Positions 3,421-43,581 are shown, numbered from the stretch's first letter. The stretch is 64,000 bases of DNA from Candidatus Vogelbacteria bacterium (GCA_021414225.1 JAIOOX010000002.1:236597-300596), one strand, 5' to 3'. Numbers and translations: made by a program. The notes: generated by a model from the sequence alone, not told the origin.

Positions 3421-4158
3421 ATGGAACCAGAACCACAATTCACAACTAAAGCTGGCGAATTTGAGGGGCCTTTAGATCTTCTTCTTCAGCTCATCGAAAA
3501 ACGAAAACTGCACATCAGTGAAGTCAGCCTGGCTCAAGTAGCTGATGACTATATTGCCCACCTGAAACAATTTGAACACTTACCTAAACACGAGGTGGCC
3601 AACTTTTTAGTGATCGCTTCTACTTTGATTTTAATTAAATCGATTGCTTTACTGCCTACTCTTGAAACCACCCCGGAAGAAACTCAGGATATTAATGATT
3701 TACAAATTCGCCTAGCCCTTTACGAGAAATTTAAATCGGCTAGCGAACTAATCAAAAACTTGTTTGGTAAAAACAACATCTTTTGGCGGGAAGAAACTAA
3801 ACATACTATTTCTGTTTTTGCACCGTCGACTGATACCAGTTTAGATTCTTTGAGTTTAGCAATGAGAAATGTGCTAGCCAATCTACCAAAACCAGAGAAA
3901 ATTCCCGAAGTGATTGTCAAAAAAGTGATCAGCCTCGAGGAAGTGATCGGTAACCTCACCAAACGTATCCAATCAGCCTTATCAATGAAATTTTCTGACT
4001 TCGCCAAAACGACAGGCGGTGATCGAGTGGGAATTATTGTTAGTTTCTTGGGTATGTTAGAACTCGTCAAACAGGGGATTATTGACGTTAAACAGGATGA
4101 ACTCTACCAGGATATTAATATAGAGAGTTCGAGTACTGGAGTACCTAGATACCAGTAA
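3421..4158 (+). CDS. scpA: segregation and condensation protein A (kleisin)
   Basis: The N-terminus EFEGPLDLLLQLIEKRKLHISEVSLAQVADDYIAHL is a typical ScpA signature. It is immediately followed by scpB. Confidence 0.85.
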   Translation: MEPEPQFTTKAGEFEGPLDLLLQLIEKRKLHISEVSLAQVADDYIAHLKQFEHLPKHEVANFLVIASTLILIKSIALLPTLETTPEETQDINDLQIRLALYEKFKSASELIKNLFGKNNIFWREETKHTISVFAPSTDTSLDSLSLAMRNVLANLPKPEKIPEVIVKKVISLEEVIGNLTKRIQSALSMKFSDFAKTTGGDRVGIIVSFLGMLELVKQGIIDVKQDELYQDINIESSSTGVPRYQ

Positions 4159-10296: not shown

Positions 10297-10909
10297 AGAA
10301 ATTACTAACGAATCAATAGAACAACATTATGATACTGAAGCGCCTATTTACGATTCTCTCGTTTCTTTTCTGGAAGTTTGGTTTTTAACTCCTTTGCGGA
10401 AAAAATTAATCAGCCAAGCCCAAGGCAAAACTCTGGAAGTAGCGGTTGGGACTGGTATAAATTTTAGCCACTATTCTAGTGGTGTTAATTTAGTTGGGAT
10501 TGATTTAAGTCAGAATATGTTGAAATTGTCTTACAATCGATCCAAAAAACTAGGCTTGGATATTGATTTACAAAAAATGAATAGTGAGAAGTTACTGTTC
10601 GCTGACCACACTTTTGATACAGTGGTATCCACCCTGGCTATGTGCACTTTCGCTGACCCGATTAAAGCTTTGACGGAAATGGCTCGGGTTTTAAAGCCAG
10701 CTGGTCACATCTTACTATTAGAGCATGGTTTAAGTAATTTGAAACCAATAGCTTGGTTTCAAAGACTACGAGCCCCCAAACATCTCCAAAAATACCAATG
10801 CCATCTCAATAGGGACCACCTAGCCACTATTAAACAAGCCGGTTTCACAAATTTTAAATCAACCAAATACTTTTTCGGGATTATTTACTTGATAGATATC
10901 ACCCCATAA
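10280..10909 (+). CDS. class I SAM-dependent methyltransferase
   Basis: Motif I-like LEVAVGTGINF and a Methyltransf_11-like fold. It overlaps the gltX end. Confidence 0.6.
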   Translation: MPTNNKEITNESIEQHYDTEAPIYDSLVSFLEVWFLTPLRKKLISQAQGKTLEVAVGTGINFSHYSSGVNLVGIDLSQNMLKLSYNRSKKLGLDIDLQKMNSEKLLFADHTFDTVVSTLAMCTFADPIKALTEMARVLKPAGHILLLEHGLSNLKPIAWFQRLRAPKHLQKYQCHLNRDHLATIKQAGFTNFKSTKYFFGIIYLIDITP

Positions 10910-33818: not shown

Positions 33819-36029
33819 TTAAATATTATAGGTTGCATAATGGTCTTTATCAACACTTTTTATCACTTCAAAGAAATTTTTAATTCTTTGTGAACTTGCC
33901 TGCAAGACAGTTACATCATATTTATCAAACCCTAAAAATTCATGTGAACCATGATTTATAAATCGATACATCACTTTCTCTTCTTGAGCGACTTCTTGTT
34001 CTATAACATCCTTGTCTGCGGGATTTGAGTTGTCTAGTCTATATTTTTTGTATTTGGCGTACAGCTGAGCAAGTTTGCTTTTCAGGTCGCCGTGTCCATA
34101 CTTAAAGTGTAGAAATGTTTCCAAAGCTCGTCTGAGTAAGTTTGCGGCCAAAATAGCATCGTCTAAGTCTATACTGTCCTTCACTTCATTCAATTTTGTT
34201 ATTGAATATAAATAGTCAGATCTATATTTTTTAAGGTTGTCATCCAACTCTTGAATTGTTGAGCCGGTATTCTTTAGTGAGATTTGAAAAAATTTAACTA
34301 AATCGTCTCTAATTTTTCCGTCTTTTCTGTAACTTTGGAGAAGGTGGCCAAAAATATCTAAATTGTGAGAAAGAATGAAATATTGTCTGTCAGGACGACT
34401 TTCAATTTCTCCCGATAGTATTGCAAACACCTGAAAAAGTGAGTCAGAATCAAGACTTGAAACAGGATCATCAATGACTATAACGGAATTCTTATCAATC
34501 TGATTATCTTCATCATTGATACTTAAAAGAAAATATGCCAAAGCTAAGAAGTTTCTCTCTCCCTCACTCAAGGAACTGAGTTCACACTTAGCACCATCAC
34601 GTTTGAGCACATAACCAACTTCTCCATCTGAATCATCCAAAGATATTTCTTTATATGGGAAAGTCGATTTGAGTAGTCTGTTTATTCTATCTGCAGGAAT
34701 TTGAACATTTTTAGCCACCTTTTTAAGCTCTTTTAAATCTTCTTCAATTAGTTTTATATCTCCTTCGTGCTTTGACTTTTCTGCTTGACAGTCTTCATAC
34801 TCCTTCTTCTTTGAGGTGTATTTTATATATGCCCTTGCGACATAATCTTTTTCGATACTCCAAGCAATTGAACCAACGTCGAAAGTTTCTTCTTCGACAA
34901 AAAGATCATCAAAGGTTATTTTTTCGACTATTTTTTTTATGTCTTTTCTCTTTTTTTCCACTCTAGATCGTAATGTGAGAAATAGAGTCTCTAAGGTTTC
35001 CTTTTTAGTAACGTAAAAACTCTCGCATATTCCAATCTCACTTATTGCGCTCTCAGTTTTTGCACTTATTCCATCCAAGGCGTTACTGAGTTCCATTACA
35101 TCTTCAGAAAAATGTTTCAATAACTCGTCTTCGTTGGTAATTTCTGACTCACAAAAAAGACAGTGGTTTAACTTTTCGGTTTCGTTTAGTTTATGAATAC
35201 CAATTCCTTCCCTTACCCATTTTTCTTCTAGACTTCCGTCAGAATATTTTGCTAGTCTTTTTGATTCTTTGTAAACAGGAATAAAAGTGAGGTATTTATT
35301 AATTTTATCTGTTTTTTCAACCACCCAATCATTCCATTTTTTCAAAGTCTTATACTCTCTCTCCTTTACAGATAGATTAGATAAAGTAGATATTCTTTGT
35401 TTTAGTTCAGATTCCTCACTTATAAAGTCATCAACTTGTTTTCCTTCGATGATTGCTTTTGATAGCCACTCTATTCTTTTTTCAAAAGAAGATTTGATAT
35501 AAGAATTATATAAACCATTACTTTCTACCACAGGATCTTTCCTTAAATGTCCAATTCCACTTATTTTTCGTATGTTTTCAGAAACTTCTTTTGATATGTC
35601 ATCGTACTCGTTCTTGCAGGCCTTTAGTTTACTTAGCTTTTCCTTTGCACCTTCAAGTTCCTTTTCTTTTTTTGAAAAATCAACACCAGCGGAACCAATT
35701 GCTACAACATATGGGAGATGGGTTTGGTCAATTGCCTCTTTTATATAGTCTTCATTAAAAACGCGAATCTTATCAGTGAAACCTGAAAGTTCACTGTGTT
35801 TCTTAGCGCCGGTATCAAATTGAGTAGTAAATTGTGCACCGTTAATTTTATCTTCAGAATTAATTATCCCTTTTTCATATGACCTAATTATTCTAGAAAC
35901 TATTGTTTTTCCAGAACCATTCCATCCCAAAATAATATTTACCTTGTCGTGAAAATCTCCAACGGTCGCATCCCAGATGAAGTTCTTAAATGCACCACAT
36001 TTGATATTTTGGATTTTCTTTATTTTCAC
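33819..36029 (-). CDS. RloC/PrrC-like ABC-type ATPase (AAA_13-like) with coiled-coil CxxC hook and C-terminal candidate anticodon-nuclease motif
   Basis: An N-terminal P-loop (ILGWNGSGKTIVSRI) is followed by a long coiled coil containing HCLFCESE (CxxC, Rad50/RloC-like zinc hook). The ABC signature LSEGERNFLALAYFL, Walker B/D-loop VIVIDDPVSSLDSDS and an H-loop (FILSHN) follow. The C-terminal ~170 aa contains LLRRALETFLHFKYGH...FINHGSHEF, an R-x3-E...H arrangement like the PrrC/RloC ACNase triad. Confidence 0.6.
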   Translation of the reverse strand: MKIKKIQNIKCGAFKNFIWDATVGDFHDKVNIILGWNGSGKTIVSRIIRSYEKGIINSEDKINGAQFTTQFDTGAKKHSELSGFTDKIRVFNEDYIKEAIDQTHLPYVVAIGSAGVDFSKKEKELEGAKEKLSKLKACKNEYDDISKEVSENIRKISGIGHLRKDPVVESNGLYNSYIKSSFEKRIEWLSKAIIEGKQVDDFISEESELKQRISTLSNLSVKEREYKTLKKWNDWVVEKTDKINKYLTFIPVYKESKRLAKYSDGSLEEKWVREGIGIHKLNETEKLNHCLFCESEITNEDELLKHFSEDVMELSNALDGISAKTESAISEIGICESFYVTKKETLETLFLTLRSRVEKKRKDIKKIVEKITFDDLFVEEETFDVGSIAWSIEKDYVARAYIKYTSKKKEYEDCQAEKSKHEGDIKLIEEDLKELKKVAKNVQIPADRINRLLKSTFPYKEISLDDSDGEVGYVLKRDGAKCELSSLSEGERNFLALAYFLLSINDEDNQIDKNSVIVIDDPVSSLDSDSLFQVFAILSGEIESRPDRQYFILSHNLDIFGHLLQSYRKDGKIRDDLVKFFQISLKNTGSTIQELDDNLKKYRSDYLYSITKLNEVKDSIDLDDAILAANLLRRALETFLHFKYGHGDLKSKLAQLYAKYKKYRLDNSNPADKDVIEQEVAQEEKVMYRFINHGSHEFLGFDKYDVTVLQASSQRIKNFFEVIKSVDKDHYATYNI

Positions 36030-36235
36030 ATTTATATTCTAACAAAAATAACCTCAAATGAAGTATATTTTGCATACTTCTCGTGCTAGCTGTTGTTGGT
36101 GATTTTCTATTTGTTGTGGTCCACAATAATTTGTTTTTCGTCAAAAACAAATTTTCCAGACCCGGCCTCGACTTTTTTGTTGCTACAAAAACATGTCTCC
36201 GGCTTCACAAAAGCGAAAAAGCCTGAGGCAGTCCA

Positions 36236-36267
36236 GCCTTTTTAAAGGCGCGCTTTTGTGAGCCCAT
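36236..36267 (+). repeat. direct repeat DR-B (partner of DR-A); embedded in a larger inverted repeat CACAAAAGCG...CGCTTTTGTG
   Basis: See DR-A. The 10-bp arms CACAAAAGCG (36209-36218) and CGCTTTTGTG (36252-36261) flank it. Confidence 0.6.
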
Positions 36268-36443
36268 TGTACTTTGAATGGAACACCATGAAAAGCACCG
36301 TCCTTAGATGGGAGGAGGTTTTCGGAAGCTTGGGTAATTTGCGAGAATTAGTCCTTACTTAGAGGGATTTTCAAGCTTTCGGAATCATTTGAACTTACCC
36401 AAGTGGTATTAGAACAAGAAAGCACGTATCTATGCTTGATTAC

Positions 36444-36464
36444 GTATACCCCCTAGGGGTATAC
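36444..36464 (+). promoter_or_regulatory. candidate CsoR operator (GC-rich palindrome) overlapping csoR promoter
   Basis: GTATACCCCCTAGGGGTATAC is a perfect 21-bp palindrome 9 nt upstream of the csoR ATG. It resembles known CsoR operators (ATACCC-N-GGGGTAT type). Confidence 0.5.
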
Positions 36465-36472
36465 TAGTAGAT

Positions 36473-36745
36473 ATGAGACAAGATATTAAAACAAAAGCCG
36501 CCCGCCGCTTAAAAATCGTTGAGGGTCAGGTGCGGGGACTACAGAAAATGGTTGAGGAGGAAAAATATTGTATAGACATCATCACCCAAGCTTCTGCTAT
36601 TAAGGAAGCATTGACTGGTGTGGAAGATTTAATACTTGAAAATCACCTCACTACCCACGTTATACATCAAATAAAACACGGTAAGGAGCAACAGGCCGCA
36701 ACCGAAATACTTAAAGTTTATAAGCTAGCCCAACGCAAAAAATAA
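36473..36745 (+). CDS. csoR: CsoR/RcnR-family metal-sensing transcriptional repressor
   Basis: A DUF156 four-helix fold (RLKIVEGQVRGLQKMVEEEKYCIDIITQASAIKEAL) with conserved Cys/His ligand positions (C-x...H-x3-C pattern). Confidence 0.8.
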   Translation: MRQDIKTKAARRLKIVEGQVRGLQKMVEEEKYCIDIITQASAIKEALTGVEDLILENHLTTHVIHQIKHGKEQQAATEILKVYKLAQRKK

Positions 36746-36748
36746 TTT

Positions 36749-37372
36749 ATGTATACATGCCCCATGCACCCAGAAGTAGTGAGCGATAAACCGGGCAAAT
36801 GCCCGAAGTGTCATATGGACCTCGTACCGCAAAACTCAACGCCAAAAGTCCACCATATGACCGACGACAAAGGCCTTGGAAATCTCACGTGGAAAAGCTA
36901 CATGCCCCTTATTGCTATTGGAGCCGTTCTTCTCCTTGCATCTGTTACCATTTCAATTCACGATGCTAATTTAGGTGTCTTTGCAATTGAAAAGAGCATG
37001 TCCTATTTCATGATTGGGTTCTTCCTTACGTTTGCCACTTTCAAACTGATGGACCTACCCGGTTTTGCACACGGGTATCAAACCTATGACCTCTTGGCGA
37101 CAAAAGCGCCGTGGTATGGATATGTCTATCCGTTTATAGAATTATTCTTTGGGCTAGCAATGATACTTATACCGTTCTCTCGTGAACTCTTAGTCGCAGA
37201 GTTCGTTGTAATGGCATTTAGTGGTCTTGGGGTAGCAATCAAAATTGCTAAGAAAGAGGAGTTTATGTGTGCGTGTCTCGGTACGTTCCTAAAAGTTCCT
37301 CTCACGAAAGTAACTTTGATTGAAGATTTTGGAATGGCGGCACTTGCAGGGATAATGTTTTTCTTAATGTAG
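36749..37372 (+). CDS. membrane protein with N-terminal heavy-metal-binding motif (MYTCPMHPE...CPKCHMDL), putative Cu-handling protein
   Basis: The YTCPMHPEV...GKCPKCHM motif is typical of the Cu/Ag-efflux-associated heavy-metal-binding domain. Four TM helices follow (DoxX/MauE-like). It sits directly downstream of csoR. Confidence 0.5.
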   Translation: MYTCPMHPEVVSDKPGKCPKCHMDLVPQNSTPKVHHMTDDKGLGNLTWKSYMPLIAIGAVLLLASVTISIHDANLGVFAIEKSMSYFMIGFFLTFATFKLMDLPGFAHGYQTYDLLATKAPWYGYVYPFIELFFGLAMILIPFSRELLVAEFVVMAFSGLGVAIKIAKKEEFMCACLGTFLKVPLTKVTLIEDFGMAALAGIMFFLM

Positions 37373-37373
37373 T

Positions 37374-37745
37374 ATGCAATTTCTAAAACAAACAATTTTA
37401 ACTCTCGCACTCGTTGCCTTTGTAGGAATGGCGGGTTTTGGAATGTTTGCAATGACCGGACATCACCACGAGCCGGGGTGTCCATTCATGCCGGGAGAGC
37501 AAGCAATATGCGAGATGAATATCTTTGACCATATTTCCGCTTGGCAAAGTGCGTTTACAGGAGTTTTGCCGTCCATTTTTATACTTGTTCTTATAGCCGC
37601 TTTATTCTTTGTACATTGGTTTAACTACGACAAACCGCCCGACTTGCGAGGCAAGGTTGGTCCTAGGAGTAGTCCCGGTTTAAACAGACCTAATCTATAC
37701 CAAGAACTATTCTCTAGCGGCATACTTAACCCAAAAGCACCCTAG
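37374..37745 (+). CDS. small membrane protein with His/Cys/Met-rich segment
   Basis: GHHHEPGCPFMPGEQAICEM lies between two TM helices, inside the copper cluster. Confidence 0.35.
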   Translation: MQFLKQTILTLALVAFVGMAGFGMFAMTGHHHEPGCPFMPGEQAICEMNIFDHISAWQSAFTGVLPSIFILVLIAALFFVHWFNYDKPPDLRGKVGPRSSPGLNRPNLYQELFSSGILNPKAP

Positions 37746-37783
37746 CCACTTGTAATCTCTCTTATTAATTAATCTTAAAATAC

Positions 37784-38203
37784 ATGCAAAAAAATACAGG
37801 AATTATTATCGCAATTGTTACTCTCATTGTAGGTCTCGGACTTGGTTATGTCGTAGGTACAAACAAAGCTCCTACGGCCCCACAAAGCGCCGCAGGGGGT
37901 CATATGATGCCTGACGGCTCAATGATGGGTAATGGCGGTGGCTCTATGAGCATGGCCGAAATGATGGCTTCAATGAACGCTGAACTGAACGGTAAGACAG
38001 GCGACGAGTTCGATAAGGCATTTATCAGTGAAATGATAATGCACCATCAGGGGGCGGTAGAGATGGCGCAATTGGCTTTGAAGAACGCTAAGCACGCCGA
38101 GATTAAAACTCTGGCAAACGCAATTATCTCTGCACAAAATAAAGAAATTGCAGATATGAAAGCGTGGCAAGAAGCATGGTATGGGAGCGAGACCAACAAC
38201 TAA
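37784..38203 (+). CDS. DUF305 family protein with Met-rich N-terminal segment (copper-resistance associated)
   Basis: DUF305 blocks (FDKAFISEMIMHHQGAVEMAQLAL; KTLANAIISAQNKEIADMKAWQ) follow an MMPDGSMMGNGGGSMSMAEMMASM Met-rich motif of the kind seen in Cu(I)-binding periplasmic proteins. Confidence 0.7.
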   Translation: MQKNTGIIIAIVTLIVGLGLGYVVGTNKAPTAPQSAAGGHMMPDGSMMGNGGGSMSMAEMMASMNAELNGKTGDEFDKAFISEMIMHHQGAVEMAQLALKNAKHAEIKTLANAIISAQNKEIADMKAWQEAWYGSETNN

Positions 38204-38276: not shown

Positions 38277-39272
38277 CTAAAGCGATGGGTGTTGCCCGTC
38301 TGGCATATCTAATCCCATTTCTCGGACGTAATCGCGGAGTTTTCGATTTTTATGAACGATATCTTTTTCAAACTTATCAATTTTTTCTATCAAGCGATTA
38401 TCAGTTGCCGGATTGGCAATGGCCCTTGCTTCAACAAGAAGTTTATTTGCTCGACGAAAACGCTGGAATGAGGGCATTTTTGTCGCAAGGTTGTAAATAG
38501 TATGTGCTTGTTCCGATGGCTTATTCGCAAGTTTGAACTCTACAATTGCTTTCTCAAAATACTGAATACATTTGTCGCGAGACAGGTTAATTTTTTTGCG
38601 CTCTTCGCGACGATAAAGATAAAGGTCTAGGTTCCACCGACGAACGAAATGTGTATTTGCAATCTTGGCTTTAAATTTTCCGCCTTTCTGAAAATCGAGT
38701 TTATCAGTCAGATATTTGTGGCTGTATACATCTCCAATCGTGGAGAATGCATGACCTCGAAACTCGTGGTCCAGTCCCTGTTCTGCTCTTTCAATAACAA
38801 GTGCAAGGGTCGTGTCTGCCTCACGTTCAAGCTCTTTACGCTTTTCGCCTAACGCTTCATATTCTTTCTTATCTTTCTCGGTCGAAAAACCTATCCATCC
38901 AAAGACCTCTGAAGCAAGCATCAAGTTTTTTTGCCTGTAGATTGCATCAGATAATTTAAGTCCAAGAAAGAAACATTTTTTACCCAACAGGTAGCTTTGT
39001 ACACTTTCGTTTCCCGTCCGCTTAGCAATTTCTATCCCCTCATTTGCGACAGCGAGTAGTTTGTCTCCCTCGGTGACATGGTCTAAAACTCCTAGCATTG
39101 CAAGGAGTACATTAATCCGAACAGAGGGGTCTTGCGTTGTTATTGTCTCAAGCAAGCTTCTCGCTTCATCATATTCGCCGAGGTTATACAGCTCGACTGC
39201 TTTTTTCAGTTTATTTTGGTCTGGCATAGTATTCACGTTGTCGAAATCGCGCGATACGAGCTGGAATTTCAT
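38277..39272 (-). CDS. hypothetical protein with N-terminal TPR-like helical repeat; overlaps upstream DUF4238 gene by 62 nt
   Basis: A 331-aa ORF (...AVELYNLGEYDEARSLLETIT...) with no recognisable catalytic motif. It is co-directional with and overlaps the DUF4238 gene in a different frame. Confidence 0.4.
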   Translation of the reverse strand: MKFQLVSRDFDNVNTMPDQNKLKKAVELYNLGEYDEARSLLETITTQDPSVRINVLLAMLGVLDHVTEGDKLLAVANEGIEIAKRTGNESVQSYLLGKKCFFLGLKLSDAIYRQKNLMLASEVFGWIGFSTEKDKKEYEALGEKRKELEREADTTLALVIERAEQGLDHEFRGHAFSTIGDVYSHKYLTDKLDFQKGGKFKAKIANTHFVRRWNLDLYLYRREERKKINLSRDKCIQYFEKAIVEFKLANKPSEQAHTIYNLATKMPSFQRFRRANKLLVEARAIANPATDNRLIEKIDKFEKDIVHKNRKLRDYVREMGLDMPDGQHPSL

Positions 39273-40128
39273 GCCTTAAAAAGCGTAGTAGGAAAACGGG
39301 GTCAAGTGGCAATCTTCGGAACCAGCGCCTCTTCAACTTTGGCGAGTTTGCAATGAAGTATTGATGTGAGTATCCGTAGACCATTCGATTGTCATTGTGC
39401 ACCATATCTTCGGTAGCAAACAAATATCCACGAACATTGTTTATCCAACTGAAACAAACAGAGATTTCAGGTGAGAGTGGCATTCGCACTTCGACCCCTC
39501 TCTGTCCAAACGCAGGAGGGAAAAAACGTTGAAATTGCATCTGACTGTTGAATAGGTATGCGGGTGCATCTGACGTAATGAAAGACACGCGTTTATTTTT
39601 CGTGCAGAGAAATGCAACATTCATTTTAGATAGGATTTCCGCAATTTTAGGGGCCATTTCTATTACGCTCATTTTGTGAGCATCTTTCTTTGCTTCCTCC
39701 CATTCCTTAGAAGATTTTGCCGGTGCTCCGTGCACTGTTTCGAGTTGCTTTGCCCAACCAATCATTTGGTCCATTTGGTTCTCAACGTGTTCTTTCTGCT
39801 TCAAGGTTCGCTGGAGCATGGCGGCGACAAACGCACAAAAAATAGCGTGCTCGTAAGGTGTAAGCGGGAGCTTGTGCTTAATCTTTTTTTCAAATATGTC
39901 GGCATACTCACTTTCAAGTTGCGCCAACGACTTTTCAATAGAATAGTCACCTTGGAATGTATAAACATCTGTTTCCGTGAGCACGCTACGGATATTCTGC
40001 CTTTTGCCTCGCTTACTTTTACGCTCAAAAATCCAAACACACGGCCCGAAGTTGCTCGGTACTTTTGGGTCTACAAACTGCTTTAAATAACATTTCGGAA
40101 TGGTGTGCTGGTTCTTCGGGTTTGACAT
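39211..40128 (-). CDS. DUF4238 family protein (Rst_DUF4238-like anti-phage candidate)
   Basis: The N-terminal hallmark H-T-I-P-x-x-Y-L-x-x-F (NQHTIPKCYLKQF) and an internal FITSDAP block are characteristic of DUF4238. Confidence 0.6.
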   Translation of the reverse strand: MSNPKNQHTIPKCYLKQFVDPKVPSNFGPCVWIFERKSKRGKRQNIRSVLTETDVYTFQGDYSIEKSLAQLESEYADIFEKKIKHKLPLTPYEHAIFCAFVAAMLQRTLKQKEHVENQMDQMIGWAKQLETVHGAPAKSSKEWEEAKKDAHKMSVIEMAPKIAEILSKMNVAFLCTKNKRVSFITSDAPAYLFNSQMQFQRFFPPAFGQRGVEVRMPLSPEISVCFSWINNVRGYLFATEDMVHNDNRMVYGYSHQYFIANSPKLKRRWFRRLPLDPVFLLRFLRHEIPARIARFRQREYYARPK

Positions 40129-40183
40129 TGTCTCTATATCATAGGGTATTTGCAGAATAATAGATATTTGGCGTTAATTGGAG

Positions 40184-40320
40184 TTAGGCATTTTCAAAAA
40201 ACCTATATCTTTCAATGTATTTTCGACTTTTACGATTTTCTAAAGCCAATAAATCAAGGGTTTTGCATAAATAAAGAGATTTTAAGGTTAGGCATTTTTA
40301 CAAAACCTATATTCTGCAAG
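40184..40320. repeat. two ~30-bp imperfect direct repeats (40184-40216 and 40288-40320) in divergent intergenic region
   Basis: TTAGGCATTTTCAAAAAACCTATATCTTTCAATG versus TTAGGCATTTTTACAAAACCTATATTCTGCAAGC, 104 bp apart. They may be regulator binding sites or iterons. Confidence 0.4.
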
Positions 40321-40371
40321 CTCTTTTAGGAAAGATGCTTTTTCTAACCGTAAGAAAATGGTATAGTAATC

Positions 40372-40496
40372 ATGCGTCCCACAGTAGTCGAATAATGTAC
40401 GAGGTCTTTTGCTTCCTATGGAAGCCCAATTGCGGGCTGAAAGGGGGGCATTCGACCGCCACAATTGGTTGCCTCGTGCAATTCAGTACTGTGGGA
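40372..40496 (+). ncRNA. candidate structured non-coding RNA of unknown class (multi-helix, closed by a 12-bp long-range helix)
   Basis: P1 is CGTCCCACAGTA (40372-40383) paired with TACTGTGGGACG (40485-40496). P2 is GTACGAGG paired with CCTCGTGC, including a G-U that favours the plus strand. P3 is the hairpin GCTTCC-tat-GGAAGC. P4 is CCAATTG(CGG)...(CCG)CCACAATTGG enclosing a purine-rich CUGAAAGGGGGG loop. Only short ORFs without coding character overlap it. Confidence 0.35.
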
Positions 40497-40576
40497 CGCC
40501 GGCTCCGAGTGTCTCCCTTTTTGTATTGTCGAACAGAAAAGGGGTTGGGCTGATTACCCACCTAGTTTTATAAATT

Positions 40577-40831
40577 ATGCTCGTAGTAATTATTGTTCTG
40601 CTCTTACTACTTCTTGCAATCGCCGCCCCTGTGCAAATAATGGCGAACAAAAAGAAGTTGAAGCAAATGGACACGCTAATTGAAGCGTTCGAGGCACAAA
40701 GCTTCGAGACGCCGGAGGCAAAAGAAAATGCCAAGCGTGTGTTAAAGAAAAAGCTCGTTGGATTGAAAGCAAAGATACTTGCTGACAAGAAATCAACGGA
40801 AATCGCGGACGACAAACTCAATATTCTTTAA
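40577..40831 (+). CDS. small hypothetical membrane-anchored Lys-rich protein
   Basis: An 84-aa ORF with an N-terminal TM (LVVIIVLLLLLLAIAA) and a K/E-rich tail. Confidence 0.3.
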   Translation: MLVVIIVLLLLLLAIAAPVQIMANKKKLKQMDTLIEAFEAQSFETPEAKENAKRVLKKKLVGLKAKILADKKSTEIADDKLNIL

Positions 40832-40856: not shown

Positions 40857-41525
40857 ATGATAGCGTCCCATAGTCAAAACAAGACCCTTAATCGTCTTGC
40901 AAAAATCTTAGAGTTTGTAGAGACGCAATACAGGTCACACGCGGACAAGGAAACATTCTTTTTGGGTGCCAGTGAGATTTTCCGCTTCGACCCACTTCTA
41001 AGCGATATGGATTTGCTAAAAATGGGTTTTGAGAAAATCACTGACGACACAGGGGGAAATGTAAAGATTGAGTTTCGGCAAGGATTACCCGAACGAAACA
41101 CAGCTGACCCGACCCATGTTAGTTACGAACTTTATGTTTGGTTCTATGTTGAGGACCAAAATAAGTTCAGGGACTATCAAAGCTCTGTGAGGTCAAGAAT
41201 TGAGAGAGAAACCAAGGCGGTCCAATTCATTCTCGACAGTCAGGGCTTCTTCTACCCAGAGGGTACGGGGCCAGAGAATAGGCACTCACTCAAAAGAAAT
41301 AGCAACCGTTACCAGTTGCTTTACTTGTTAGCTAAGGAAAACAGATACATTGCAACAAAGGAACTTGCGGAAAAGCTGAATGTCTCGGCTCCAATAGTGA
41401 GAAAAAGGATAGGTGAGATTAGAAACATTATCGCCAAAAAGTGGGAGTTGTCGCGTGAAGCATTGTTTGAAAGTGACAATGCTTCCGGTTACCGAGTAAC
41501 GAATGTCACTCTCCAAGAAAGCTAA
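40857..41525 (+). CDS. hypothetical protein with C-terminal winged-helix/HTH DNA-binding domain
   Basis: The C-terminus NRYIATKELAEKLNVSAPIVRKRIGEIRNII is HTH-like (DeoR/MarR-type recognition helix). The N-terminal domain is unknown. It lies upstream of the recombinase. Confidence 0.4.
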   Translation: MIASHSQNKTLNRLAKILEFVETQYRSHADKETFFLGASEIFRFDPLLSDMDLLKMGFEKITDDTGGNVKIEFRQGLPERNTADPTHVSYELYVWFYVEDQNKFRDYQSSVRSRIERETKAVQFILDSQGFFYPEGTGPENRHSLKRNSNRYQLLYLLAKENRYIATKELAEKLNVSAPIVRKRIGEIRNIIAKKWELSREALFESDNASGYRVTNVTLQES

Positions 41526-41668: not shown

Positions 41669-41866
41669 ATGGTATCGTTGCCCGATTTTAAAAAAGCACT
41701 TGGACCTCTTGGCGACAAACTCACAGAAAAAGAGATTGAGCGTCTCAATATTCTTTCAGCTCAACTTGCTGGTTCTCTTTTCAATATGTGGAGCCGAAAA
41801 CTAAAAGAGAGTAGGCAGAATGAGAAACCAATAATTTATGGAAACGACCAAATACGCAATAATTGA
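41669..41866 (+). CDS. small hypothetical protein overlapping recombinase start (possible directionality factor)
   Basis: A 65-aa ORF ending 29 nt inside the recombinase ORF. It has no known domain. Confidence 0.25.
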   Translation: MVSLPDFKKALGPLGDKLTEKEIERLNILSAQLAGSLFNMWSRKLKESRQNEKPIIYGNDQIRNN

Positions 41867-43547
41867 CTGTCGCGTTAGTGACCCGCAACAGTTGAAAGGT
41901 GGAAGCTTGGAAGACCAAGAGGTTATTGGTCGTGCAACAGCAATGCGCTACAACGCAACAGTTGCGCATGTTTTTAGAAAACCACATTCAGCAACAACTA
42001 CAGAAAGAGATGATTTGGATGAAGTCATAGATTTTATTAAGAAATATCCTCATCAAATTCATTACTATATTTTTAAATGCATTGACCGATTTACCCGTGC
42101 CGGCTATCCCGAATACGAAAGAAGAAAAGCAGAATTAGAAAAACTAGGAGTTCAAATTATTGACTCCTACGGCGTAATTCAGCCGATACAAAACACACTC
42201 GACCACCTTGGTCAAAAATATAAATGGAGCATGTATTCTCCAAGTGAAATTGCTGAAATGATTTCGGCATATCAAGGAAAAGCAGAAGCAAGAGAGATTT
42301 TAACTCGAATGGTAGGTGCCGAAATCCGTCTTGTGCAAGAGGGGTTTGCTGTAAGACGCGCACCTGATGGATTACATAACAAGCGTATTTTTATTAATGG
42401 AAAAGATAGGGTCATTAGAGAAGCCGGAGAAAAAGCTCATTATTTTCAAAAGATGTATGAACTCCGAGCAGATGGTATTGATGATACGCAAATCGTCAAC
42501 ATTTTAAATGCCACAGGTTTCAAAACAAATATCTATACACGGTGGGATAGGAGTGACCCAGAACATCCTCGAAAAATTGGAACCAGAGGCGGTAAGGTTC
42601 TTACTGTAAAGCAGATGCAACGATATTTACTCCAAACAGAGTATGCCGGTGTAAGTTGTGAGAAGTGGAATAAACACAAGCCGGTCAGAACGCAGTACTT
42701 TGACGGCATTGTTTCTATAGACACTTTCAATCGAGCCAATCGTGGAAAAGTTTACATAAAAGTATCAGAGGGTGACGAGATTGAAGTGCTCTACAACTAC
42801 TCTCCTTGGGGCCGTGTAAAGCGTCTAAGAGACAATCCGATGTACCCATGGAAATGTATAGCGTGTCCTTTCTGCAATAAATCAATGCTCGGTAGTCCGT
42901 CTACTGGAAAGTCGGGTGCTAAGTTCCATGGGTATCATTGTGGTGGTTCAAAATCAGGCGACAGAGCACATGAATATTTCCGTCTTGATAAGAAAACTTT
43001 TGAGAGTAATGTGAAAAATTACTTAGACAGTTTGAAATTCGAGGATGGATTTTTAGCAGGATTGGAATTGCACCTACTTAGCGAATATCGAGAAAGAGAA
43101 AAAGAAGTTGTACTCGAATCTTCTGCAATAAGCCGAACGGTATCTGATTTAAAAGCAGAGTTGGCCCAAAAGTTGGAAGCATTCGGTTTTGCTGAAAGTC
43201 CAATCACTAGGAAAATGATTGAACAGCAAATTGCTGAACTGGATGAACAGATAAAGGGAGCAGAGAGCCAACGAATGGAAATTGAAGTAAATGAGAAGAG
43301 TATCCGTGTCTTTGTACGCTATGCAAAATACGTAATGGAACACCCGGCGGAAATCCTTACAGAAGCTTGTGATTTACAGGGTCGCCGTGCTCTTTTGGGT
43401 CTGTTCTTTGAACAAACCCCGACCTATAACGAAATACTTAATGGAACACCAAAATTAACGGCTCTTTTCAAGCTTTCTGAAGAGTTTAAGGGTAATAAAA
43501 CCCAACTGGTGACCCTACGGGGAATCGAACCCCGATTTAAGCCTTGA
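41838..43547 (+). CDS. large serine recombinase (phage-integrase type resolvase/invertase family)
   Basis: An N-terminal resolvase catalytic domain (YAIIDCRVSDPQQ...) is followed by a recombinase domain, a zinc ribbon (CIACPFCNKSMLGS...HGYHCGG) and a C-terminal coiled coil. The last 41 nt are antisense to tRNA-Glu. Confidence 0.85.
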   Translation: METTKYAIIDCRVSDPQQLKGGSLEDQEVIGRATAMRYNATVAHVFRKPHSATTTERDDLDEVIDFIKKYPHQIHYYIFKCIDRFTRAGYPEYERRKAELEKLGVQIIDSYGVIQPIQNTLDHLGQKYKWSMYSPSEIAEMISAYQGKAEAREILTRMVGAEIRLVQEGFAVRRAPDGLHNKRIFINGKDRVIREAGEKAHYFQKMYELRADGIDDTQIVNILNATGFKTNIYTRWDRSDPEHPRKIGTRGGKVLTVKQMQRYLLQTEYAGVSCEKWNKHKPVRTQYFDGIVSIDTFNRANRGKVYIKVSEGDEIEVLYNYSPWGRVKRLRDNPMYPWKCIACPFCNKSMLGSPSTGKSGAKFHGYHCGGSKSGDRAHEYFRLDKKTFESNVKNYLDSLKFEDGFLAGLELHLLSEYREREKEVVLESSAISRTVSDLKAELAQKLEAFGFAESPITRKMIEQQIAELDEQIKGAESQRMEIEVNEKSIRVFVRYAKYVMEHPAEILTEACDLQGRRALLGLFFEQTPTYNEILNGTPKLTALFKLSEEFKGNKTQLVTLRGIEPRFKP

Positions 43548-43581
43548 GAAGGCTCCGTCCTAACCGTTAGACGATAGGGCC
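43507..43581 (-). tRNA. tRNA-Glu (anticodon CUC)
   Basis: Reverse complement: GGCCCTA-TC-GTCT-AACGGTTA-GGAC-G-GAGCC-TTCTCAA-GGCTT-AAAT-CGGGG-TTCGATT-CCCCG-TAGGGTC-A-CCA. It folds into a cloverleaf with a 7-bp acceptor stem, GTTCGATTC T-loop, anticodon CTC and encoded CCA. Confidence 0.8.

Follow-up and report, generated by a model that had tools for sequence, protein, structure and literature searches.

In the genome of a Candidatus Vogelbacteria bacterium, a member of the candidate phyla radiation (CPR, or Patescibacteria), the intergenic region upstream of a gene for a DUF4238 protein holds a segment filled with complementary sequence, and the question that it raises is what this segment does and to which of its neighbours it belongs. 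We analysed it within a stretch of 64,000 nucleotides (GCA_021414225.1, JAIOOX010000002.1:236597-300596), which we call the window. An original prediction, made from the sequence alone, had placed a highly structured RNA at 40372-40496 and suggested three roles: a leader or riboswitch for the small open reading frame (ORF) at 40577, a partner of the DUF4238 gene and its TPR neighbour, or a ribozyme. On balance we favour the view that the element is a cis-acting 5' leader RNA that serves the recombination module of a genomic island as a conformational switch or attenuator. The module would probably consist of the small ORF, a helix-turn-helix (HTH) protein, a 65-amino acid (aa) ORF and a large serine recombinase (LSR), carried on an island of a CPR bacterium that inserts at a tRNA gene. 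We read the RNA as acting in cis because it always precedes the LSR gene and because the first ORF has no separate promoter, a promoter scan between the end of the RNA and the ATG of this 84-aa ORF having found no promoter-like site. The literature that we searched contains no description of this RNA, and the family appears to be undescribed so far.

The predicted structure is genuine and all four of its helices are found in the sequence, but several details require correction. The closing helix (P1), described as 12 base pairs (bp), is a perfect 13-bp inverted repeat (40374-40386 with 40487-40499), recovered at 100% complementarity by a repeat search, and the helix containing a G-U pair (P1b), described as 8 bp, has 9 bp with U.G ends (40397-40405 with 40471-40479). 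The 6-bp hairpin GCTTCC/GGAAGC (P2; 40411-40416 with 40420-40425) stands as described. So does the CCAATTG/CAATTGG helix (P3; 40426-40435 with 40459-40468), which the repeat search also returned as CCAATTGCGG/CCACAATTGG; its purine-rich loop, however, is not free but complementary to 40500-40523, and the 3' end of the element lies farther on than described, at 40523 or beyond. Judged from the sequence and its homologues, the element spans 40374 to ~40523 on the + strand, or ~150 nucleotides (nt), and its parts are as follows.

40359-40367, + strand: extended -10 box, TGGTATAGT, ending 6 nt before the first base of P1
40374-40386, + strand: 5' arm of P1 ('a'), GCGTCCCACAGTA, one side of the 13-bp perfect inverted repeat
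40397-40405, + strand: 5' strand of P1b, GTACGAGGT, partner of 40471-40479
40411-40425, + strand: P2 hairpin, GCTTCC-TAT-GGAAGC, read in the sequence
40426-40435, + strand: 5' strand of P3, CCAATTGCGG, partner of 40459-40468 with one C.A mismatch
40436-40458, + strand: P3 loop ('g1'), GCTGAAAGGGGGGCATTCGACCG, the 5' strand of the loop-tail helix by RNAduplex and covariation
40459-40468, + strand: 3' strand of P3, CCACAATTGG, from the repeat search and covariation
40471-40479, + strand: 3' strand of P1b, GCCTCGTGC, from covariation
40487-40499, + strand: 3' arm of P1 ('a-prime'), TACTGTGGGACGC, complementary to 'a' and to 'a2'
40500-40523, + strand: tail ('c'), CGGCTCCGAGTGTCTCCCTTTTTG, the 3' strand of the loop-tail helix, with a U-run at 40518-40522
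40524-40576, + strand: remaining leader up to the ATG of the 84-aa ORF, from RNAfold of the full leader
40863-40874, + strand: 'a2', GCGTCCCATAGT, a third copy of the P1 5' arm in codons 3-6 of the HTH ORF, +6 to +17 from the A of its ATG

P1, P1b, P2 and P3 are nested and together make a three-way junction. None of 200 dinucleotide shuffles equalled the minimum free energy (MFE) of the + strand (-57.2 kcal/mol, z = -5.1), which upholds the earlier claim that this much pairing exceeds chance. The - strand also folds well (-51.7 kcal/mol, z = -6.1) and therefore the strand could not be chosen by folding energy alone. Some strands have more than one partner: the pyrimidine arm of P2 has a second possible partner in the G-run of the P3 loop, and this is the pairing in the MFE structure that RNAfold returns for the + strand; in the full leader GAAAAGGGG (~40535-40543) is able to pair with CCCTTTTT of the tail, with a second hairpin, GGGTTGGG...CCCACC, and then TAGTTTTAT beyond it.

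The complementarity of loop and tail is a feature that the original prediction did not describe. The ~22-nt P3 loop (40436-40458) and the 24-nt tail that follows P1 are complementary over 16-23 nt, with an RNAduplex energy of -32.6 kcal/mol in the window and of -22 to -39 kcal/mol in 15 other representatives; relative to shuffled tails, z ranges from -1.7 (in locus L084) to -8.9 and lies below -2.9 in 15 of the 16 representatives. In every family the pairing begins 0-1 nt after P1 and is followed by a U-run of U3-6. Where the sequence changes, both strands change: where the loop of the window's subfamily has an inserted GG (GGGGGG vs GGGG), its tail has an inserted UC (GUCUCCC vs GUCCC), and UUCG/CGAG in the loop and tail of the window becomes UCCG/CGGG in L083. 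The corresponding pairings are AAGGGGCGG/CCGUCCCUU in L084, AGAAAAGGAAGCAA/UUGCUUCCUUUUUU together with CCUGCU/AGCAGG in L021, and GGGAGCAGUA/UACUGCUCCC in L044. For families 3 and 4 RNAalifold itself selects the loop-tail helix, and 14 of its 22 pairs are compensatory. By the established geometry of pseudoknots, a hairpin loop of 22 nt cannot make a helix of 16-20 bp while its 10-bp stem is closed. P3 and the full loop-tail helix, each with covariation in its favour, therefore probably represent alternative states, or else the complementarity is used only partly at a time.

The element is kept in at least 20 loci from metagenome-assembled genomes (MAGs) of CPR bacteria and from metagenomes. 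Homologues occupy the equivalent place before the HTH/LSR module in L082-L089, and every locus with an HTH homologue and enough upstream sequence has a clear copy in this intergenic region. The covariance model R1 (alignment A2), which was built from eight sequences, matched more distant copies ahead of other CPR LSR genes (L025, L012 and L021), a metagenome scan with the conserved pattern added L097-L101, and a second model, R2, matched all of the copies found by R1 and by the pattern. Covariance models and a structure descriptor were needed because blastn and nhmmer searches with the element on 80 recombinase loci gave a single weak match. The descriptor, which asks for a long closing helix and complementarity of an inner segment to the tail, recovered the same architecture in unrelated sequence 40-160 nt before the ATG of the LSR gene in L040, L044, L045, L049, L050 and L063. 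When a -10 box was also required, its strong matches, in 9 of 80 LSR loci, lay without exception on the + strand and 40-820 nt ahead of the recombinase. Descriptor matches in L015 and L018 were dropped from the class, the L015 region being a LOOT RNA on the other strand. A blastn search of plasmid and phage collections with the element gave no match, and neither the HTH protein nor the RNA pattern found anything in scans of viral contigs; a genome scan with a single recombinase protein was likewise empty, and the scan with an alignment gave the loci.

These copies fall into families, of which 1 and 2 have the P3-loop sequence in common, while 3 and 4 share the architecture only and differ in the sequences of loop, tail and P1. 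Some junction or unpaired nucleotides are conserved inside families 1 and 2. The position of P2 is taken by a hairpin of other sequence in most homologues (AAGGG-UUU-CCCUU in L025) and is empty in L084, and P3 of family 2 is a continuous 10-bp helix (CCAAUCGUAG/CUAUGAUUGG). The contig that carries the family-2 copy of L098 has a second RNA of the same class (10548-10660, - strand), with its own TGCTATAAT box and a continuous loop-tail complementarity of 23 bp.

Covariation, which the original prediction had named as one of its tests, was counted over P1, P1b, the 10-bp P3 and the loop-tail helix in a model-based alignment of 12 sequences (A5). Standard pairs fill 94.9% of the pair cells, as against 38.6-48.7% when the partners are slid by 1-3 columns, and 28 of the 46 pairs, with some in every helix, show compensatory changes on both sides; the observed covariation values were reached by none of 500 shuffles. 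All 13 pairs of P1 have changed on both sides among the homologues, and compensatory changes occur in eight of the nine pairs of P1b and five of the ten of P3, counts which lean towards structure since A5 was fitted to a model holding P1, P1b and part of P3. The loop-tail helix is absent from that model, yet 94.5% of its cells pair. P1 arms elsewhere read GTTCAACTATAACGG, GTCCACCTATAACG, GTGAACACAACTT and TTGAACCCAAC, and between families they are wholly different and always perfectly paired (GCGUCCCACAGUA, GUUCAACUAUAACGG, GUCCACCUAUAACG, GUGAACACAACUU and UUGAACCCAAC). We consider the covariation strong enough to warrant an entry as a new RNA family.

The strand and place of the RNA are equally consistent. 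A TGnTAnAAT-like box lies 5-7 nt before the first base of P1 in all subfamilies (TGGTATAAT, TGCTATAAT, TGTTATAAT, TAGTATAAT, TGCTACAAT and GGTACAAT), and P1 should therefore stand at the 5' end of the transcript, with a putative start at ~40374 in the window. Some 50 pair cells hold G.U on the + strand, where the opposite strand would have A.C mismatches, and in every locus the RNA has the orientation of the downstream genes. In families 1 and 2 it heads an operon of small ORF, regulator, ~60-aa ORF and LSR gene; in families 3 and 4 it sits between the ~60-aa ORF and the LSR gene and abuts the LSR start. Three short overlapping ORFs inside the element had been judged to lack coding character, and indels of 1-2 nt between homologues do argue against coding. 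The suggestion of a leader for the ORF at 40577 is therefore sound in so far as this ORF opens the operon in whose 5' leader the element lies; the riboswitch that was part of the suggestion is another matter.

A classical riboswitch, in which the three-way junction and pseudoknot would bind a small molecule or ion and control the recombination genes, has the position in its favour, since the RNA lies everywhere in what would be the 5' untranslated region (UTR), on the same strand, after a -10 box and ahead of the operon. The multi-helix junction and the loop-tail pseudoknot fit as well, the alternative pairings resemble an expression platform, and the conserved junction or unpaired nucleotides of families 1 and 2 would fit too. 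Riboswitch classes, however, keep an invariant pocket, and here no core nucleotides are invariant in all members: the core sequence is not kept between subfamilies and nearly all nucleotides lie in long Watson-Crick helices (13-17 bp in P1, 16-23 bp in the loop-tail helix). It is the want of an invariant core across subfamilies that makes a small-molecule riboswitch unlikely, and we rate it low also in view of the genes concerned, which are neither metabolic nor transport genes. When the window was compared with the 4227 models of Rfam 15 at the gathering threshold only the tRNA matched, and between 40100 and 40900 no family, riboswitch models included, matched even at E <= 10; there was equally no match at the gathering threshold at the homologous positions of 11 related RNA-carrying loci. 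This agrees with the original prediction, which had recognised no known riboswitch class.

The same searches bear on a self-cleaving or otherwise catalytic RNA that would process the 5' end of the recombinase mRNA. Such an RNA could well have a compact, pseudoknotted fold in a 5' leader, but the resemblance is a general one, no ribozyme family of Rfam matched and no core nucleotides are invariant across subfamilies, so that we think catalysis highly improbable. Two further candidates were rejected. The inverted repeat of a retron msr-msd is there, but none of the neighbouring ORFs encodes a reverse transcriptase domain. A guide RNA of the recombinase would have unpaired loops complementary to target and donor DNA; the longest words that the element shares with the att/tRNA region are 6-9 nt in ten loci, in the range of chance.

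The P1 arm has a third copy, and the strongest rival explanation begins here. Between the 3' arm of P1 and positions +6 to +17 of the HTH ORF, 8-12 bp are possible in all family-1 loci, and in L084 the same T-to-A change appears in all three copies (GCGACCC/GGGTCGC/GCGACCC). The third copy of family 2, which reads GTTCAACTATG or TCCACCTATG, overlaps the start codon (AUG) of the first small ORF and offers 10-11 bp. Two subfamilies thus have, at the start of a downstream ORF, an arm copy that covaries with P1. When the family-2 leader of L098 is folded by RNAfold with the 5' arm removed, it forms a long hairpin with the P1 3' arm over the AUG, and across family 2 the arm and tail pair downstream with z = -3.2 to -4.3 in four of five leaders (-1.6 in L098). 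In the window's family the pairing with the next 150 nt is at chance (z ~0), and therefore only the distant a2 site supports coupling there. Families 3 and 4 have a conserved CUUCAAC beside the loop that can pair with part of the P1 3' arm.

Complementarity between an RNA and the translation start region of a gene in its own operon, as in families 1 and 2, is what one would look for in a c4-type antisense RNA. The element might accordingly be an independent small RNA, ~150 nt long with its 3' end at the U-run, which acts in trans or after processing from the leader and is antisense to a downstream ORF start. Its own putative promoter, compact fold and U-run at the last helix would suit such an RNA, as would a2, whose 12 nt lie at the start of the HTH gene (in family 2, over the AUG) and are complementary to the P1 3' arm, with which they covary. 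Phage P1 supplies the precedent, c4 RNA being needed for full repression of icd/ant in the immI operon that encodes it (PMC8198154). The proposed antisense segment is, however, fully paired in a 13-bp helix, where known antisense RNAs expose loops; families 3 and 4 have no a2; and a separate promoter for the downstream genes is not evident. Nor is there a match to the C4 family, which we take to be RF01695, among the Rfam searches at E <= 10 between 40100 and 40900. We regard this as unlikely, while granting it more weight than any other alternative.

The three copies of 12-13 nt, two inverted and one direct, could instead matter as DNA, whether as sites for the HTH protein or recombinase, as the ends of an invertible segment or as a fold of single-stranded DNA. 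They do covary, one of them lies at the putative transcription start, both strands fold well, and the adjacent genes include those for a DNA-binding protein and a recombinase. Binding sites would leave the compensatory changes in P1b, P3 and the loop-tail helix unexplained, however, along with the frequent G.U pairs on the + strand only; families 3 and 4 keep P1 without the HTH gene or a2; 100 bp is very short for an invertible segment; and the similarity between the RNA and the att/tRNA region is not above chance. A function at the level of DNA therefore strikes us as very unlikely.

If the RNA is a cis-acting leader, the following mechanism may be proposed. It would be transcribed from its own extended -10 promoter, with P1 at its 5' end, and the three-way junction would fold first. 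The emerging tail could then invade the P3 loop, and the long G/C-rich helix thus formed beside the U-run would stop or lock most transcripts and so keep recombinase expression low. In families 1 and 2 the 3' arm of P1 would choose between the 5' end and an ORF start, and through this choice of partner the first regulator's translation would be coupled to the fold. Candidate triggers of the switch include one of the module's proteins, a ligand, temperature and RNA processing.

The tail may act as a terminator in this mechanism: a G/C-rich helix ending in GGG/CCC precedes a U-tract of U3-6 in all families, as at an intrinsic terminator. Several observations weigh against our proposal, and the first concerns this very point. 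Intrinsic terminators have short hairpin loops of 3-8 nt, whereas the two strands here are 45-60 nt apart, and a stem that closes a structured 'loop' of this size is not a canonical intrinsic terminator; a simple scan for consensus terminators found no site between 40000 and 41000. P1 is very long, at 13-17 bp, and in constrained folding the nested junction loses 3-15 kcal/mol of stability when P1 gives way to the loop-tail helix, so that spontaneous switching is not obvious. The coupling to translation is burdened by the distance of 360 nt between a2 and the P1 3' arm in the window's family, by the location of a2 within a coding region, where protein constraint adds to its conservation, and by families 3 and 4, in which neither a2 nor downstream pairing is detectable. 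A copy of the RNA is detectable in only ~9 of 80 related LSR loci among species-representative genomes, from which it follows that the RNA is not essential to the recombinase family. Finally, the start of the RNA, its 3' end and its termination are all points that we infer. A local hairpin terminator that shares the P1 3' arm (GGGACGCC/GGGTGTCCC with the U-run) was considered and dropped, because the P1 arm differs in L084 and family 2 but the tail does not; the hairpin is not kept in either.

The genes around the element, listed here from left to right, explain why we assign it to the recombination module.

33819-36029: AAA_13/AbiEii-like ATPase, cargo-like
36473-36745: CsoR-type metal repressor, cargo-like
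36749-37372: HMBD-MauE protein, cargo-like
37784-38203: DUF305 protein, cargo-like
38277-39272, - strand: 331-aa gene with a sub-threshold TPR_2 match, left of the element
39211-40128, - strand: DUF4238 gene, left of the element
40577-40831, + strand: 84-aa ORF, the first after the RNA, with a hydrophobic N-terminus and a charged, lysine-rich tail
40857-41525, + strand: 222-aa protein with a C-terminal winged-helix HTH_11 domain (Pfam, 9e-06)
41669-41866, + strand: 65-aa ORF overlapping the recombinase start, a candidate accessory or directionality factor
41838-43547, + strand: LSR of 569 aa with Resolvase and Recombinase Pfam domains
43507-43581, - strand: tRNA-Glu(CUC), found by ARAGORN and Rfam

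The order in related loci is variable cargo, intergenic region, small ORF, HTH gene, a ~60-aa ORF in most, and recombinase gene. The 84-aa ORF has no significant Pfam family and is conserved in L082, L083, L085 and L087. The HTH protein has only nine homologues, most of them without a source name and none assigned outside CPR. By tblastn, the 65-aa ORF lies just upstream of the LSR gene, without annotation, in ~35-40 of the loci fetched. The LSR has 157 homologues, and those with a source name are proteins of CPR (Parcubacteria-type) MAGs. The last 41 nt of its ORF (...LVTLRGIEPRFKP) are antisense to the 3' half of tRNA-Glu(CUC), a C-terminal G-I-E-P motif is kept across the recombinase family, and the overlap of tRNA and LSR recurs in L012, L015, L021, L040, L045, L049 and L084. 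We infer that this tRNA gene is the integration target of the LSR, and the island seems to supply the 3' end of the tRNA from within its own recombinase gene. A search of the window for att direct repeats of the tRNA end, which would mark the left end of the island, gave only 11-mers at chance level; the genes at 33819-38203 resemble island cargo.

What lies on the other side of the intergenic region differs from locus to locus: DUF4238 in the window, a UvrD-type helicase with a deaminase, KAP NTPases, or an nSTAND3 ATPase with an S8 peptidase and a TIR protein elsewhere. Since the cargo varies and the module is constant, the RNA belongs with the HTH/recombinase module and not with DUF4238. 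The proposed partnership with a DUF4238/TPR defence pair, as a type III antitoxin or other system-associated noncoding RNA, had adjacency and divergent orientation in one window as its only grounds, and the comparison leaves it almost no credence: the same RNA adjoins other cargo, at least 15 other loci have it without DUF4238, and it is transcribed away from the DUF4238 gene. There are also no tandem direct repeats inside the element, hence no ToxI-like array of ~36-nt repeats. A search for the motif beside other DUF4238 genes was equally unfavourable, tblastn having found DUF4238 in the window's own contig only; L070, which has a DUF4238 gene, had no match to R1 or R2.

Two direct repeats of 41 nt (40183-40223 and 40287-40327; GTTAGGCATTTT.ACAAAACCTATAT...), 80% identical and 104 nt apart, stand between the DUF4238 gene and the RNA promoter. 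They may be operators or promoters, and L082-L087 keep related repeats (GGCGTTGGGCTTTTTTAAGAAA.CCTTATTTTGCAAGC). A block of ~75 nt (GGACATGGGCACATTTTACCATGTTTTCCCATCAAAATTAAGCAACGAATGT...), which is absent from the window, occurs directly upstream of differing cargo genes (helicase, KAP NTPases) in L082 (846-930), L083 (~3935-4010), L084 (3907-3990) and L085 (4113-4200), and looks like a shared promoter or leader of a cargo 'slot'.

To our knowledge the regulation of LSRs in integrated elements is poorly understood, and we know of few characterised regulatory RNAs in CPR bacteria; LSRs are also under development as genome-writing tools. If our proposal of a cis-acting leader is true, the heavily paired leader, the pseudoknot-type terminator-like helix and the strand with three partners would amount to a new design of RNA switch, and would give a handle on the control of island excision and integration in bacteria with small genomes. 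A more far-reaching and rather improbable idea is that the RNA is a sensor or cofactor for island movement, either as a ligand- or protein-responsive gate on the LSR gene or through a direct part in recombination or in the decision on its direction. That would make it the first structured RNA with a functional link to a large serine recombinase.

The arrangement has analogues in other mobile elements. The bridge RNAs or seekRNAs of IS110/IS1111 are also structured noncoding RNAs directly upstream of a site-specific recombinase and on its strand; unlike them, our element accompanies a serine rather than a DEDD recombinase, has its variable segments all in intramolecular helices instead of open guide loops, and shows complementarity to the att/tRNA region at the level of chance. 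Closer in provenance is the LOOT RNA (RF03000), a structured RNA of unassigned function that occurs near a related CPR LSR gene: in L015 it matches at 3431-3551 (- strand, 71.6 bits), ~450 nt upstream of the LSR gene and divergent from it, and the region of L018 is near-identical. LOOT lies on the strand opposite the recombinase, however, and has a different fold with GNRA-capped hairpins; its model does not match the element of the window, nor do R1 and R2 match L015.

The c4 antisense RNA of phages P1 and P7 (immI) is likewise a small structured RNA that heads its operon in a mobile element and carries short sequences complementary to the ribosome-binding region of a downstream gene. It is said, after Citron and Schuster in 1990, to have an a1/b1-a2/b2 arrangement with related copies upstream. 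The element differs from c4 in showing no similarity of sequence or model, in burying its complementary segment in the 13-bp helix where that of c4 lies in exposed loops, in having such complementarity in two subfamilies only, and in giving no indication of processing by RNase P.

The closest likeness is to pseudoknotted leaders such as the preQ1, ZTP, fluoride and SAM-II riboswitches and to classical attenuators. With these the element shares its location in a 5' UTR behind what would be its own promoter, a junction or hairpin loop that pairs with the 3' tail, mutually exclusive helices with a strand in common, a final helix followed by a U-run, and an ORF start that can be sequestered. It departs from the pseudoknot riboswitches in matching none of their models, in its far longer helices (13-23 bp) and in the absence of a conserved ligand pocket, and from such leaders generally in that its genes are the recombination and regulatory genes of a mobile island. 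Its terminator-like helix, moreover, closes a structured segment of 45-60 nt and must therefore itself be a pseudoknot or an alternative state. In kind, then, the element is already known, as a structured regulatory leader; its design, and its tie to the large serine recombinases of CPR islands, are new.

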